Source of the DNA: a virus
Taxonomy: Duplodnaviria; Caudoviricetes
IMG/VR virus record: IMGVR_UViG_3300036784_000146
Location: 1-64,000 of that record
DNA: 64,000 bases
Reading direction: 5' to 3' (one strand)
Part shown: positions 3,081 through 47,305 of the stretch, in pieces
Numbering within the stretch: the first letter of the stretch is position 1
Layout of the letters: each line of letters starts with the position of its first letter
Notes under the pieces: model-generated
Told to the model about the DNA's origin: nothing
Database searches by the model: none
What the model saw: the letters and a program-made list of their open reading frames with translations, nothing else
Translations under genes and position numbers: made by a program

Positions 3081-3996
3081 GCTCGGGGTGCAGTGGCACG
3101 ACTTCTTCCCCGCCCGCTGCTGGACGTTCGTTGATCAGGGCCTTGCGCATCTTATTCTCCATCCCGGGCTTGCCCTTCCACTTAGCGTATTTAAGGATCG
3201 CGATCTGGATGGCCCGATGCAGGGTACCGAACAGAAATGCCTCGACGAGGGCGAAGCCCAGAGTGGTTCCGGCCAGCACGCTGTGGTGGATGGTCTCGGC
3301 ACCGTACCAGGCCAGGGTGGCCGTCAAGGAGCAGGCGCCGCACAGTTCCAGGTTCATGCCCAGGTCCTTGTTGCGCAGGTGCAGCCCGAACATCACCACC
3401 GCGCCGCCCATGAAGTTGATCAGTGCCAGCTGTACGGCTACGGGGCGCTCTACTTCGGTGAAGACGCTGGATGGCACGACGCCGATGATGATCTGGGCGA
3501 TCGAGGCTGTCATCAGGAAGGTGGTGGCCCACAGTTGGTAGGGGTTGGAGGCCCAGCGTTTGCCGGTGAAAGCGTTGGCGTAGGTGATTGCGCGCGCGGT
3601 GTAGATCACGCAGATGAAGGCCATGACCAGCGGCCACAGCGCGGTGATCCGGGTGGGCATCACGTAGACCATGCGGGTCATGGCCATCGCCATAGCCAGC
3701 GCCCAGGCCCCGCACATGGTGGCTCCGGTGATGACGATGGCTCCCCGGTGCTGGTATTTGTCGCTGAGGATCAGCTCGCCGATCATGTAGATGGTGACTG
3801 CAACCGCGAGGGTTCCGGACCACGAGTACTGCATGAACGGCACCTTGCGGACCACGTTGAAGACCGGGTCGTCCCATCCGGCGGGGTCGAGCGCCGTGGC
3901 CATTGCGACCGTGTAGCCGAAGACGATCAGCAGCCAAGAGAACGCCTTGTCGGCGCTGCGCAGCGTGTCTTCGGGCAGTCTGTTCAGGATGCCCAC
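3070..3996 (-). CDS. Polytopic membrane protein (~8 TM, apparently two 4-TM halves)
   Basis: Alternating hydrophobic segments; RBS and an AAAGGGT motif upstream on the minus strand. Confidence 0.75.
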   Translation of the reverse strand: MGILNRLPEDTLRSADKAFSWLLIVFGYTVAMATALDPAGWDDPVFNVVRKVPFMQYSWSGTLAVAVTIYMIGELILSDKYQHRGAIVITGATMCGAWALAMAMAMTRMVYVMPTRITALWPLVMAFICVIYTARAITYANAFTGKRWASNPYQLWATTFLMTASIAQIIIGVVPSSVFTEVERPVAVQLALINFMGGAVVMFGLHLRNKDLGMNLELCGACSLTATLAWYGAETIHHSVLAGTTLGFALVEAFLFGTLHRAIQIAILKYAKWKGKPGMENKMRKALINERPAAGGEEVVPLHPEHGR

Positions 3997-41378: not shown

Positions 41379-44077
41379 TTGGCTGACGGAAGCAGGGTCG
41401 CAATGTCCGGTGGTTGTTTTGAAGTTTTGGCCGCATCGGAGGACGAGCAGAAGCTCGCCCAACAGCAAGCAGGTGACAGGCTTGCCGCCGCCGTCTATGA
41501 CGTGCGCCAGGAGTTTGGTGACTTCCTGTTCAAGGCCGCCAACATCCAGGAGTTCCGCACCCGGGTGGCACTGGTCAAGGACGACATGATGAAAGTCGTC
41601 GATCGCCACCTTCCGCCGGTGTCCGGCGTGATGGGCCGCATCGCGGTGCGCCGGGGCTCGATCCTGGAACGCCAGTTCAAGGCCTTCAAGAAGGGCGCCC
41701 CGTTCGCCGACTATGACAACTTCGCCGACTGCACTTCCAAGAACAGCGACAAGGACAACCCCGACGCCTACTGCGGGGAGATCAAGCACCGTACCGAGGA
41801 CAAGACAAGCGCCCGGCGGCTGGAAGCGACCCACAGCATCGTCGCCGACGACCCGCACTTGGGCTGGTTCGCGGTCGCCGACGCCACCTCCGGCGCCGGT
41901 GAGTACGTGAACGACATGGAGGGCCAGCTGTCCGGCGGGTCGGCGATGCCTCCCTCTCCTCTCACGTCAGGTGATCCCACCGGCGGCATGCTGGGCGACA
42001 CGGTGGTCCCAGGCAACATCCCAGGCAATCCCGGGATCGAGGGGGACAAGCCCACGATGCCCGGCGGCCTGAAGAGCTGGGGCCGTCGACGGCACTGGGC
42101 CACCGGCGAGGGCGGTGCGTTGTCCACTGACGAGACCTATCACCCTGAGTCCGGCGCGCTGATCCCTGAGGGCGACTGGCACGGCTTCCAGGACAGTGTC
42201 GACCAGGGTGCGGAGTCCAAGGTCGACGACGCGTTCGCCTCCGGCGAGCACGACAAGCACTACGACGGCGACCCGTCGAACACCGACTTCGTCAGCGGCC
42301 ACGAGGCGGCCTGGGTCGGCCCAGACCAGCACAGCTACGTGGGCAAGCCGAAGGGTCAAGATGCTGAAGACTGGGGAAACTGGGAAGAGCACCTGAAGTC
42401 CCGAAGTGCCGATCCTCGCAATCGCGAACACCCTTTGGTGCAAGACGCCAGGGACTCTCACGACCGGGCCATTGGGGCCCGGCGACGTCAAGCGGTGGAC
42501 GACGACAACAACGGCATCTACAACGTCATGCAGGGGCAGGGCTTCGGTCCCGAGCACGAGACCGGTGGGTTCGACGAAGCGTTCCCCTCCAAGATGGGCG
42601 CTCTGACTCTGCGCTACCTGTCGTTTTGCCATCGCAACAACCTGGCGCCGACGCTGGCCAGCCTGGAACGCCACGGCAAGAGGCTTGATCCTGGCGAGTA
42701 CTTAGCGCTCGCCAACGGGCTGGACAAGCTGGCCCGGCTGCCTCGGTCCGAGAAGGTCAAGGTGGCCCGGCTGGTGGACTGGACGCTGCGCCAGGCCGAG
42801 ACCTACCACGGCGAGGGCGACGTCGAGGACAAGTCGGGTCCTTTCGCTGGTCCGCACGGCTCCTTCCCGGTCGGCACCGAGAGCGACCTGAGTGGCGCCA
42901 AGGACGTGTGCAATATGCCTTCGGTGCACGGCAAGCACCCGGGCACGTGCGACCGCATCGAGCACATGCAGAAACCGGCTGCCCGACGGCGTCGAGCTGC
43001 ACCGGACTATCTGATGAAGGCCAAGGACGCGCTGGAAGGCCTGCTCAATCAGAAGGCCGAGGAGTTCCAGACTGGCGTGGCCCCGCTGCAGCAGGCGCTG
43101 CAGGTGGTCCAGCAGTCTCAGGCCATCGAGCAGGCCAACAACCCGCTTAGTGTCCAGCCCCCGGCGGGCACCGTAAACGTCTTGCCCGATCCTCCACAGG
43201 GTATGCCCGGCGCTCCGGCGGCTGGCGGCGGCGCTCCGGCGGACCAGAACGCTCCCCCTCCGGCAGCCGACGCAGCTGGTCTGTCAGGGATGCCTCCTGA
43301 CCCCACCCAGCAGATGGCGGCGAGCCGGAGGCGTGGTGGTCACCCAAAAGGCCGGGTCCCCGCGTAGGGGACGTCGTCAAGGACTACCAGAGCTGGCTGA
43401 ACCGGCGCCCGGACAACCGGGGCGGTTCGGATCTCGAAGAGTTCGCCGTCGAGCATCCCATCGGTGACCGTGCCAAGCGCACCCTGCAGGAGCAGATGTA
43501 CGGCCAGCCGTCGCAGACCACGGCGGCCTACCAGGCGGCCTGCAAGGTATTCGGCAAGCAGGCCGTCGACGCCAGTCGTCGCGGCCGCACCGCGTCTCGC
43601 AAGCAGGCCTGGATGGGCTGGGGCCCTGCCCAGCTCGACCATCACCCCCGGGTGGCCGGATGGGACTGGGATCCGCACCTTGAGGCCTACACGGCCAGGA
43701 CACCCGGCCGGTTCGCCTGCTCGTGCGGCAATCAGATGGACATGCCCGGCCATCACGAGTGCAAGTGCGGGCGGCTGTACAACGGCTACGTGATCGGTAC
43801 CGGCGGATCCAACCACGAGGCCAGCGCCGAGAAGTATCTGGTGCGTGAGATCACCGTGCGCCCCGACGTCATCGTGGCCAACAAACAAGCGGCGCCGTCC
43901 GGCTACTACGGCAGCCCCGCTTACGATCCCGACGACCCCGACGCCGACTTCCCGTCAGACCACCACCCGTCCGTCGGCCGTCAGCCAGCAACCCCGGACG
44001 ACTGGGCGCACCGCAACGAGAAGAACGATTGGACGTCTCATCCGTTGCCCCGGCGTAAGAGGCGCCAGCCAGCTTGA
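41379..44077 (+). CDS. Large head-associated protein (662 aa to 43367) with predicted -1 frameshift extension to 44077 (~899 aa)
   Basis: Slippery C-CCA-AAA at 43343-43349; -1 frame open and coding-like from there to 44077. Confidence 0.75.
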
Positions 44078-44340
44078 CTTCCTCCCAAGGCCGAGGCCGA
44101 GGGATTCCCACAAGGAGATTCGACATGCTGAGTGTACAGCTAAAGCGGGCAGGGGCACCGTTTGGTTATCGCGGTATCGCCCCTGCCCGCAAAGTGGCAT
44201 CTTCCACACCTGGGGGTGTCGAATCTCCTTGTGGAGGTTCGCGGATCGTCGCCGTGTCTAACTGCACAAGAAGGCTTACCGCGCTGCCACCGCCAGCCCG
44301 GCGGCGGGTTCCGAGGAACGTATTTAACGATAGCAGTCGA
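44074..44340 (-). mobile_element. Non-autonomous IS200/IS605-type element or omega-RNA-like structured sequence
   Basis: Minus strand ends GAAT-CCCTCGGCCTCGGCCTTGGG-AGGAAG-TCAA (IS608 right-end layout); nested 18-bp and 12-bp perfect inverted repeats; left boundary uncertain. Confidence 0.6.
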
Positions 44341-44372
44341 TTAAAGGCGGGAGTTTTGCCGGGCGGTTTTGC

Positions 44373-44732
44373 ATGATTGGCACGGTGTGCCAAGGCTGCA
44401 AGCAGCTCGCCGAGATCGCCCACACCGATAGCCTCGGCCTCGGCTACTGCGCTCGGTGCGCCAAGGACATCCCAATCCAAAGCGAGACACTGGGTTTGGA
44501 GTACCTGATAGCCAACCCCCCGTTCTTCCCCGGCGATCGAGTAGAGTGCCGGACCGGCGGAGAGATTTTCGACGGAGTCGGAACCGTCCAGGAGATGAGT
44601 TTCGATTTCGAGCACGGGGGAACTTTGATCTATCCTGCCTTCCGCGTGACCATCGACGAACCTGCCAACGAGCACAGTCCGGTCGAAGGCTGGTGGACCG
44701 AGGTCTGCTTGAAGAAGGTGGGTAAGCCATGA
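44373..44732 (+). CDS. Hypothetical protein (Zn finger plus SH3-like)
   Basis: Two CxxC pairs; FFPGDRVEC. Confidence 0.65.
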   Translation: MIGTVCQGCKQLAEIAHTDSLGLGYCARCAKDIPIQSETLGLEYLIANPPFFPGDRVECRTGGEIFDGVGTVQEMSFDFEHGGTLIYPAFRVTIDEPANEHSPVEGWWTEVCLKKVGKP

Positions 44733-47305
44733 CGGCGCCGGGCGGGCGGTTCTGGACCGGCAACCCCGATGCCGAGATGCGCCGTCTGCGGGCGGCCGGG
44801 GCCACGCTCCCCAACTCCGCGCCGAGGGCCCGGCTGGAAGCCAAACGCTTCGGCGATCAGATACGCAGCGGCTCCCTGGTGGACAACACCAACCGGATGA
44901 TGGGTGCCGACTTCCGGCGCCGCCGGGCCTCAGGCCTGCGTACCGGTGCCAACGTCCAGATGGCGATGCCCAAGTTCCGCACCCCGCTGGGCTCCCTGGA
45001 AGACAAGAACGTCCCGTTCAACGTCGAGGACCGCAAGGAGCTGCAGGAATGCCGCCGGTGGGCGCGGGCCTTCTATATCACCCACGACCTGGTCCCGCTG
45101 CTGATCGACATCTACGCGCGCTTCCCGCTGGTTGGCTTGGAGTTCAAGAGCACCGACCCGCTGATCGAGAAGTTCTACACCCAGATGTTCCTCAACGACC
45201 TGGACTACGAGAACTTCCTGCCCGACAGCCTGGGCCGCGAGTACTACGTCGCCGGTGAGGTCACCACGCTGGCTCATTTCAACGAGTCGCTGGGCATCTG
45301 GTCGTCGGAGGAGGTCCTCAACCCCGACTTCGTGCGGGTGTCCAAGGGCCTGTTCGTCGAGGAGGAACGTGTCCAGCTGATGGTCAAGGACCTCGTCGAC
45401 GGCCTACGCGACGGGCCGCAGGGGATGGGCCCCGACGAGGAGACCCGCAGCGAGCGCGAGGAGCGCCTCTACGAGTACCGCATGCTGGTGCAGAACTACC
45501 CCGAGATCATCCGCGCCGCCCAGATGGAAGACGGCCTGGACATCAGCCCGGCCAAGTGGAGCCGCATCGTCAACAAGAGCGCCCCGTGGCATGAGTACGG
45601 CACGCCGCCGCTGTTGCGCAGCTTCCGCACCCTGATGATGGAGGAGTCCCTCAACGCTGCTCAGGACGCCGTGGCGGACCGTTTGTACTCCCCGATGATC
45701 GTGGCCACCCTGGGCCTGGAAAACATGGGCGACGGGCTGCCCTGGATCCCGATGCAGTCCGACCTCGACGACCTGCGCGACGACATGCAGAACGCGTTCA
45801 TGGCCGACTTCAAGCTCGTCTGCCACCACATGGGCCTCAACGTGGAGAACGTCTTCGGCCGCGAGTCGGTCCCCCGATTCGATCAGGACTACGAGCGCAT
45901 CGACCTCAAGCTGATGCAGGCCTGGGGCATCGGCTCGGCACTGATCATGGGCGGCACCGGCGCGGCCGGTACCTACGCCAGCTCGGCACTGAACCGCGAG
46001 GTGTGCGAGCTGCTGATGAAGAGCTACCAGAAGAAGGTCATCCGCCACATCGTGAAGCGGATGGAAGTCATTGCCGAGGCCCAGCAGCACTACGCCTACG
46101 AGAAGAAGGGCGGCTACCGGCGGCCCCTCTACAAGGAGGTCGTGCAGTTCAACGAGGAGACCGGCGAGGAAGAGATCGTCCGCGTTCCGCAGCTGCTGAT
46201 TCCCAAGGTTGAGTTCGCCTCGCTCAACTTGCGCGACGAGACCCAAGAGCGTTCGTTCATGATGGAACTCAAGCAGGCCGGGGTGCCGATCAGCGACAAG
46301 AGCTTGGCGATCAACATCCCGATCGATTTCGAGCAAGAGCTGCCTCGCGGCGCCGACGAGACGGTCGACAAGCTGGTGGCCCAGGCCGAGGCGATGGGCA
46401 AGGCCCAGTCGATTATCGACCACAAGGACCTGCCGTACCCCGCCGAGCTGGCCCAGTACCTGACTCAGACCCTGATCCTGCGCCAGCAGCTGGCCCAGAC
46501 CAAGATGATGGAGGGCCAGGAGGAGATGCAGGAGACCGCCCAGCAGCAGCAGACTCCCGCCGGTGCGATGGGTGCACTGCCCGGCGTCCCGCCAGCTCCC
46601 CCGCCGCAGCCTGAGGGCGGCGAAGGCGAGGATGGCCAGTTGCCGCCTCCGGGCCCGATGCCCGTCCCGATGCTGCCCGGCGACGGCGGTCCGCCCATGG
46701 GCCCCGGTGGTCCGATGCCCATGCCGCCCCAGATGGCCTCTCCGGAGATGCAGACCGAGATGGGGCTGGTGGCCGCCAAGGGGCAGAAGCGCACGCCCTT
46801 CCAGGTCAATGCCCCACATGCCGGTGGCCCCGGAATCCTGCCGCCCGACATGGAGTTCGGCAACGAGAACGAGTTCGGAGGCGGACAGCCTTCCGAGGTC
46901 GTCGAGCCCCCGCGCAACCGCACTCGTCCCGAGGAGAGCGACGAGATGCGGGCCAACTCCCCGCGCAAGGCCACCCGGGTGGGCCGTAGCGGGATCCGCA
47001 AGAAGGCCGAGTTCGAGATGGACCCCAGCTCCTACGGCCACCGCAACCGGGTCAGCGAGAGCGCGGTGGAGAAGGCCGTCCGGCGCCGGGAGGCCCAGGC
47101 CAACCCGCCCCGGGTCGACGAGCTGATCCAGGACCCCAAGTTCTACGCCCTTACCGGCATCGGCGGTTACCAGGCCCAGATCCAAGGCGACTTCCCGCAC
47201 ATCATGGCCGGTGACGACGACGACAGCACCAAGGAGTCGATCCAGATTCTTGAGGACGCGTTACTGCAGTACGAGCGGCAAACAGGAGTGAGGCCGATAT
47301 GGTGA
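44729..47305 (+). CDS. Portal protein
   Basis: IDIYARFP, GEV, EEVLNPD, YGTPPLLR, AQDAVADRLYSP, YASSALN; position at the head of the capsid module; long Pro-rich C-terminus. Confidence 0.85.
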   Translation: MTAPGGRFWTGNPDAEMRRLRAAGATLPNSAPRARLEAKRFGDQIRSGSLVDNTNRMMGADFRRRRASGLRTGANVQMAMPKFRTPLGSLEDKNVPFNVEDRKELQECRRWARAFYITHDLVPLLIDIYARFPLVGLEFKSTDPLIEKFYTQMFLNDLDYENFLPDSLGREYYVAGEVTTLAHFNESLGIWSSEEVLNPDFVRVSKGLFVEEERVQLMVKDLVDGLRDGPQGMGPDEETRSEREERLYEYRMLVQNYPEIIRAAQMEDGLDISPAKWSRIVNKSAPWHEYGTPPLLRSFRTLMMEESLNAAQDAVADRLYSPMIVATLGLENMGDGLPWIPMQSDLDDLRDDMQNAFMADFKLVCHHMGLNVENVFGRESVPRFDQDYERIDLKLMQAWGIGSALIMGGTGAAGTYASSALNREVCELLMKSYQKKVIRHIVKRMEVIAEAQQHYAYEKKGGYRRPLYKEVVQFNEETGEEEIVRVPQLLIPKVEFASLNLRDETQERSFMMELKQAGVPISDKSLAINIPIDFEQELPRGADETVDKLVAQAEAMGKAQSIIDHKDLPYPAELAQYLTQTLILRQQLAQTKMMEGQEEMQETAQQQQTPAGAMGALPGVPPAPPPQPEGGEGEDGQLPPPGPMPVPMLPGDGGPPMGPGGPMPMPPQMASPEMQTEMGLVAAKGQKRTPFQVNAPHAGGPGILPPDMEFGNENEFGGGQPSEVVEPPRNRTRPEESDEMRANSPRKATRVGRSGIRKKAEFEMDPSSYGHRNRVSESAVEKAVRRREAQANPPRVDELIQDPKFYALTGIGGYQAQIQGDFPHIMAGDDDDSTKESIQILEDALLQYERQTGVRPIW

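Follow-up and report, generated by a model that had tools for sequence, protein, structure and literature searches.

An omega-RNA-type scaffold on a non-autonomous IS200/IS605-family element in a soil mycobacteriophage-like virus

Palindrome-associated transposable elements (PATEs) that encode omega RNAs and need TnpB in trans have been described, and TnpB cuts the empty donor site, which restores the transposon (PMC10055086). The right cleavage site of IS608 from Helicobacter pylori is TCAA (PMC3201880). The archaeal tailed virus HRTV-DL1 carries a transcribed PATE, the right-hand part of which is strongly transcribed antisense to an annotated gene (PMC10544981), and IStrons combine an IS605/IS607 element with a group I intron and are removed from the mRNA by self-splicing (PMC10690162). 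Here, we analyzed a 64,000-nucleotide stretch of viral DNA (hereafter called the window), which is the first 64 kb of the 143,610-bp uncultured virus record IMGVR_UViG_3300036784_000146 (96% complete). Positions 44074–44372 of the window contain, on the minus strand, a 299-bp non-autonomous PATE of an actinobacterial IS200/IS605 family. It very probably has an omega-RNA-type scaffold and arrived via a host TnpA, which is the best explanation for the features described below.

The family assignment is based on homology to the 3' ends of tnpB genes. R1, a covariance model derived from five phage copies of the element, matched 13 of 151 sampled Mycobacteriales genomes, with scores of up to 86.5 bits and up to ten copies per genome. 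When five R1-positive genomes were searched for the TnpB zinc-ribbon domain PF07282, at least 12 R1 matches were found to begin within a few bases 3' of this domain on the same strand. In L214, the R1 match (3325–3467) overlaps the last 89 nt of the gene for a 405-aa TnpB with HTH_OrfB_IS605, OrfB_IS605, and TNB domains, and a 132-aa Y1 transposase (PF01797, Y1_Tnp; 138 bits, E 1.7e-40) precedes this TnpB, making up a complete IS605. The match has the position and strand of a TnpB omega RNA. The C terminus of the L214 protein reads ...NILAAGLAVTGRG, to be compared with EPAAGLAVAAR-stop in the invariant hairpin H1 of the window (44307–44287, minus strand), which doubles as a vestige of the 3' coding end of tnpB. 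Judged by sequence, the 234-nt core of the window copy shares ancestry with the RNA that autonomous IS605 copies encode at the 3' end of tnpB, and the scaffold ends at the transposon boundary (TCAA, 44074), as in the omega-RNA layout of tnpB. Since R1 matches adjoin tnpB 3' ends, one of them within a complete IS605, the element is a non-autonomous IS200/IS605 derivative, and the window copy is a member of this family by descent. The tnpB-linked bacterial copies lack the long arm of the window copy (44108–44234) and have 4–28 nt instead of ~100 nt at this site. The Rfam model HgcC, an archaeal RNA overlapping tnpB 3' ends, scored 23.5 bits at L200 (1531–1644) and 21.7 bits at L207 (1487–1624) among the bacterial copies, below its gathering score of 50.

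The boundaries of the element are defined by an empty allele. A 518-nt contig from the soil run X4, which is independent of the source sample, joins position 44071 directly to 44371, matching 44012–44071 with two differences and 44371–44826 at ~88%, and thus represents a near-identical allele apart from the missing element. The junction skips 299 nt with two ambiguous bases (GC), and the element therefore spans 44074–44372. The empty allele reads ...CAG CCA GCA TGA TT, in which the upstream stop codon overlaps the downstream ATG (ATGA). The insert is also missing in seven more distant relatives (L176, L171, L178, L179, L002, L003, and L004), the portal proteins of which are 58–87% identical to that of the window phage among those measured; their flanking genes overlap by ATGA or sit 7–8 nt apart. 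No terminal inverted repeats were found in the element by a repeat search and inspection. A first-pass annotation of the window, made from the letters alone, had suggested a silent non-autonomous insertion and a check for empty alleles in relatives. The precise presence/absence polymorphism and the intact flanking reading frames bear out this suggestion. Its proposed end at 44340, with an empty site ...GCT TAA beside TTTAA, has to be replaced by the end at 44372 and the ATGA overlap of X4.

The element is one of a dispersed family. A search of a large protein collection with the translated gap between the flanking genes found one called protein, P0001, and a search via P0001 and DNA patterns yielded five further viral copies in IMG/VR (L183, L184, L185, L195, and the P0001 contig), so that six viral copies are counted with that of the window. 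In the sequence comparison of L183, L184, L185, and L195, the element is the only common part; the flanks are unrelated, and the element is antisense to the flanking genes. The phage copies on that strand end in GGAATCC-hairpin-GGAGGAWGTCAA, and the similarity stops exactly after TCAA, the terminal motif of all copies. A right end of the form GGAATCC-hairpin-GGAGGAWG, with a covarying hairpin, is kept in all phage and bacterial copies. Comparison of copies within one genome fixed the ends of the autonomous relatives. The tnpB-bearing copies of G025 start after GGTCAC (target motif, TAM, TCAC) and end in ...GGAGGATGTCAA, and the copies of G131 start after GGTGAT and end in ...GGAAGTCAA. In metagenome contigs, the phage-type H1 pattern detected at least 120 family loci. 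Among the matches listed, 100 have a recognizable right end, with H1-to-TCAA sizes of 108–155 nt and 214–253 nt; tnpB lies beside five of these 100, and 93 show no tnpB on the available stretch, many contigs being short. Either TCAT or TCAC forms the left flank at 27 distinct solo sites, where the left end is conserved with a hairpin (e.g., CCCCGCC-GTTCA-GGGCGGGG), followed by CGGTAGNNTGG, which contains a TANNNT box, before the RNA core. Ten metagenome copies are flanked by ordinary genes of bacterial metabolism, such as those for aminotransferase, dihydroxy-acid dehydratase, aldehyde dehydrogenase, copper amine oxidase, and enoyl-CoA hydratase. The family is a bacterial one that phages have occasionally acquired. 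Phage specificity of the long form (with the extra arm) was rejected, because both long and short copies occur in bacterial metabolic operons. A long-form and a short-form copy were also observed on one contig, L285 (8–242 and 3495–3621), 3.3 kb apart.

On the minus strand, the window copy is preceded by the target motif TCAT (44373–44376; ATGA on the plus strand, i.e., the ATG of the downstream gene plus A) and begins with a decayed left end (44336–44372). In the alignment with family left ends, ~26 nt are gone, including the left subterminal hairpin that is kept in family copies; the right subterminal hairpin is present and covarying. The fold energy of the left end is −5.7 kcal/mol in the window versus −28 to −35 kcal/mol in five intact bacterial copies, and the phage copy L183 is intermediate (−20.5 kcal/mol). 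Because the left-end hairpin has been lost, the window copy is probably immobile and no longer excisable. A putative TGn plus −10-like box (TG-C-TATCGT; TGCTATCGT, 44335–44327) lies 5' of the conserved RNA core, and a TANNNT box (TAGGAT, TAGGGT, TAAGCT, TAGAGT, or TAGATT) occupies the same position in other copies. Next come hairpin H0 (44319–44308), hairpin H1, and helix H2 (CGCGG...CCGCG) together with the CCUCC strand of the closing helix (44233–44283), which pairs with GGAGG at 44085–44081. The expanded arm P3 (44108–44234) has an 18-bp stem and an inner 12-bp hairpin (44145–44190) with the conserved loop GAUACCGCGAUAACCAAACGG; these stems are perfect inverted repeats (44108–44125/44217–44234 and 44145–44156/44179–44190). 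The right end (44078–44107) consists of GAAT (44107–44104), the subterminal hairpin, and the linker AGGAAG, and is followed by the terminal cleavage motif TCAA (44074–44077). The plus-strand complement of this motif, TTGA, contains the TGA stop codon of the upstream gene (44075–44077) and a TTG codon that opens frame 0 of the element. In IS608, a GAAT before the right hairpin is presumably the right guide.

If transcription passes the right end, the omega-RNA layout of TnpB predicts a guide segment, GCUGGCUGGCGCCUCUUACG, at 44073–44054 on the minus strand. The X4 empty allele, which matches 44012–44071, has TCAT adjoining this region; the predicted guide thus matches an empty allele beside TCAT, and a natural target would therefore exist. 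Beyond the predicted guide, a weak terminator-like hairpin with a T-rich tail is seen at 44043–44031 of the minus strand, 31–43 nt past TCAA; one such site was found versus 0.6 expected, which is within chance. The anatomy of the window copy agrees with what the first-pass annotation had noticed, namely the 18- and 12-bp inverted repeats, the hairpin at 44287–44307 (which is invariant in the family), the minus-strand order GAAT-hairpin-AGGAAG-TCAA ending at 44074, the supply of the upstream TGA by TCAA, and a TGnTATCGT box near 44330. It had described the locus as an orphan IS200/IS605-type right end with an omega-RNA-like body. The body has gained support from the R1 homology to tnpB 3' ends, and the orphan right end has become a whole PATE with a decayed left end. 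Taken as a whole, that reading was essentially correct.

The target motif is related to the start codons of the interrupted operons. TCAY reads RTGA on the gene strand, i.e., a start codon plus A, and the TCAA right end places TTGA at the former start-codon site. In the window, GCA TGA is converted to GCT TGA, and the upstream protein is therefore unchanged. TTGA also provides a TTG codon downstream of the native ribosome site of the gene, which is usually found in the upstream flank just before this TTG. Frame 0, read from the TTG, is stop-free in all five phage copies, compared with an average of 3.0 stops in the other frames. In the window, it forms a bridge reading frame on the plus strand (44074–44376), which has its TTG at 44074 and no internal stop codon and overlaps the next gene by ATGA. 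In the window copy, L183, and L184, frame 0 ends in a TGA overlapping the real ATG or GTG, that of L185 ends 11 nt before the start codon, and that of L195 runs in frame into the gene. Of 59 distinct solo metagenome sites, 40 have an open frame 0, compared with 31 of 118 for the other frames (Fisher p = 1.4e-7), and ATGA or GTGA serves as the first stop in 24 of 41. Most left ends of the family read ...GGAGG-N5-7-RTG on the gene strand and thereby supply a ribosome site, a motif in which GGAGG is degraded to GGCGG in the window. These sequence features suggest that insertion in this family is targeted exactly to start codons and that the elements are built to keep both neighboring genes expressed. 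Ribosomes initiating at the TTG would read through the insert and be passed on at the authentic start codon, which would preserve translational coupling and avoid polarity. We found no description of a TCAY target as start-codon complement, a TTGA end, an open bridge frame, or a left-end ribosome site for IS605 elements.

Here, we propose a course of events for the window copy. The element would have arrived by single-strand "peel and paste" transposition catalyzed in trans by a host Y1 TnpA, landing 3' of a TCAT that is complementary to the ATGA in which the upstream stop codon and the start codon of the downstream DUF7245 gene overlapped. It would no longer be excised. A minus-strand RNA may start near 44320 from the −10-like box and run past 44074, and a host TnpB could load this RNA and cut the TCAT-flanked empty allele, which is the usual transposon-retention role of TnpB.

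A possible but unlikely extension of this scheme is that the phage keeps an immobilized orphan guide RNA as an adopted weapon or gene drive. Together with a host TnpB, the RNA would cut the TCAT-flanked empty alleles of co-infecting relatives, and the rival phage would be killed or converted by recombination. The loss of the left hairpin would have locked the element in place, and the start-codon-targeting, translation-bridging design would spare the head-gene operon any cost. An empty-allele relative does occur in the same habitat type, with at most two differences in 60 nt at the guide region and TCAT adjacent; the scaffold and −10-like box are intact, with the left end decayed, and homing of TnpB to empty sites is established (PMC10055086). 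However, most family copies are located in bacterial metabolic operons, and conservation of the RNA therefore needs no phage-specific benefit. The small number of viral copies found (the six mentioned above) and the lack of TnpB in the phage also argue against this role.

The sense strand of the structure distinguishes the PATE from a regulatory element of the phage mRNA. Both strands of the element fold far beyond shuffled sequences (plus, z −5.95; minus, z −5.35). The strong fold of the plus strand and the sequestration of an internal AAGGAG-ATG by the 18-bp stem would also suit an mRNA structure unrelated to transposons that regulates the head-gene operon as an attenuator, a processing site, or by ribosome-site sequestration. 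This is highly improbable, because the wobbles are G–U pairs on the minus strand of the window and would be A–C mismatches on the plus strand, as exemplified by the invariant hairpin CCGCCGC/GCGGTGG. In L183, moreover, the minus strand folds with z −3.83 versus −0.92 for the plus strand, which is no better than shuffles, and the homology to tnpB 3' ends is in the minus-strand sense. For the omega-RNA-type scaffold of the PATE, 28 distinct long-form sequences were compared; 96.7% of the cells pair, and 39 of the 62 pairs are changed on both sides. H1 (helix 1, 8 pairs) shows 99.6% pairing, with a G–U pair in 28/28 sequences on the minus strand only. In helices 2, 3, and 5, 98.6–100% of the cells pair (helix 4, 90.4%), and compensatory changes are found in 24 of the 25 pairs of the arm helices 6, 7, and 9. 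None of 500 shuffles reached the observed covariation, and slid partners pair at 35–56%. An independent MAFFT/RNAalifold analysis of five sequences gave 23 compensatory pairs, and the stems of the phage copies differ in sequence with their pairing kept. A hairpin with the conserved loop GCGAUAGCCAAGC is within the extra arm of long-form copies (loop at window 44157–44178), is 5' of H1 in short-form solo copies (e.g., L264 and L301) and in L200, and is absent from the tnpB-linked copies examined; this module seems to have moved within the RNA.

The open bridge frame might alternatively be read as a small plus-strand protein gene of 83–100 aa, running from 44074 or 44125 to 44376 with its own ribosome site. 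The frame is open across the element and contains a perfect AAGGAG 7 nt before the ATG at 44125 (44112–44127), it ends in an ATGA overlap, and its homolog P0001 had been called as a protein. Nevertheless, there is hardly any room for this explanation. The G+C content at third codon positions (GC3) is 0.51–0.52 in the bridge frame and 0.51–0.65 in the gap frames, compared with 0.76–0.90 in the neighboring genes, coding scores are negative, and the bridge frame has no Pfam or PHROG match. Furthermore, the conserved nucleotide blocks are read in any of the three codon phases, depending on the copy, and it is therefore the openness of the frame, not a protein sequence, that is conserved. A mobile element of another kind, namely a miniature inverted-repeat transposable element with terminal inverted repeats, an IS110-type element with bridge RNA, or an IS607-type element (serine recombinase, 2-bp GC core), was rejected as scarcely credible despite the GC at both window junctions and the IS110-like lack of terminal inverted repeats, because copies vary in the dinucleotide after TCAA (GC, CA, TT, GT, and GT), the autonomous relative carries a Y1 transposase, and the ends obey the TAM/TCAA scheme of IS605.

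Several points weigh against an omega-RNA-bearing PATE mobilized by the host. The sequence support for the putative minus-strand promoter and transcript is the −10-like box, and a scan for E. coli-type promoters gave no site. Neither Y1_Tnp (tnpA) nor TnpB (tnpB) is encoded in the window, as the first-pass annotation had noted, or in the whole 143.6-kb record, and the partner proteins would have to come from the host. The other four viral records carrying family copies likewise have no tnpA or tnpB. The pair counts were made on an alignment that had been fitted to the covariance model. The 2-nt GC repeat at the junction would also fit joining by other mechanisms; this dinucleotide is not kept in other copies, and the flank duplications of 12 nt in L185 and 17 nt in L183 are not predicted by simple IS605 insertion. 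In addition, the window copy may be decaying as a whole, considering its left end and weakened ribosome-site motif. As to the two duplications, the 12 nt of L185 (GTGATCGGCTAC, the first four codons of the gene) are found on both sides of the element at ~3257–3601, and in L183 (3886–3945), 17 nt of the end of the upstream gene are repeated beside the TTGA end.

The sequencing runs containing the window are soil metagenomes by label, none of them an RNA run, and the portal protein is 53–58% identical to the portals of Mycobacterium phages of the Phrappuccino or Bxz1 type; the virus is an uncultured soil mycobacteriophage-like virus. The genes around the element are all on the plus strand. The upstream gene (43496–44077), a C-terminal piece of the phrog_2922 protein, has its stop codon inside the element and is separated by a 295-nt gap from the DUF7245 (phrog_2858) gene (44373–44732), the start codon of which is part of the target motif. 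The portal gene (44729–47305) follows. The phrog_2922 protein is encoded by a single long gene in relatives (779 aa in L004 and 891 aa in L002); in the window, it is split into a 662-aa frame (41379–43367) and a 193-aa frame (43496–44077) with 128 nt between them. In L171, a 192-aa frame that resembles an HNH endonuclease by eye (1480–2058) lies within the phrog_2922 homolog in another reading frame and may be an intron- or homing-type insertion.

Conventional searches at the locus were negative. Rfam 15 had no match over the element at the gathering threshold or at E values up to 10, and ARAGORN found nothing in the 295-nt gap. Neither the element nor its flanks had a BLAST match among 50,697 phage records, and the element gave only short GC-rich BLAST matches against 401 Mycobacteriales genomes; the relatives in these bacteria surfaced through the covariance model only. 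A protein-pattern search over metagenome contigs revealed no relative. A 15-mer scan with a stem arm, which comprises the ribosome site and ATG, gave chance matches only.

The analysis turns a motif-level guess into a homology-backed identification of a phage with an orphan TnpB guide-RNA scaffold and no nuclease of its own, and it delineates a family that is abundant in soil, with at least 120 copies in metagenomes. The start-codon design would explain how a 300-bp insert is found inside tightly coupled operons, including phage head genes. The locus offers a testable case of phage guide RNAs that would work in trans with a host nuclease, and the covariance model provides a possible host-range clue to hosts with a cognate IS605.

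The closest known systems are the gene-less ISGst-type PATEs of Geobacillus stearothermophilus (PMC10055086). Like these elements, the window family has no protein genes, a target motif on the left, and a cleavage motif on the right; the omega-RNA scaffold for a TnpB encoded elsewhere and the mobilization by Y1 TnpA in trans are shared features that we infer for the window copy. It differs from them in being another sequence family, in its occurrence in high-GC soil actinobacteria, in its TCAY target, and in its built-in TTGA, open bridge frame, and left-end ribosome site. Its long form also has an extra arm of ~100 nt, and the window copy resides in a phage and has lost the left hairpin. In common with IS608, the family has no inverted terminal repeats, inserts 3' of a fixed tetranucleotide, and has TCAA 10 nt 3' of the right-hairpin foot when this foot is placed at the conserved CC/GG. 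In contrast, IS608 targets TTAC and carries both tnpA and tnpB, and the sequence similarity is limited to short motifs. The PATE of HRTV-DL1 is likewise virus-borne and located between genes, but it is archaeal, 489 bp long, and 99% identical to a host copy, and no link to start codons or a bridge frame has been described for it. The mycobacterial interspersed repetitive units (MIRUs) of Mycobacterium carry small frames overlapping the stop and start codons of flanking genes. MIRUs and IStrons resemble the window family in that the interrupted genes are spared, which is a likeness in outcome only and not in ancestry. MIRUs are tandem units of 46–100 bp with no omega RNA, and IStrons spare their genes by RNA splicing, whereas the window family would do so by translation across the insert.

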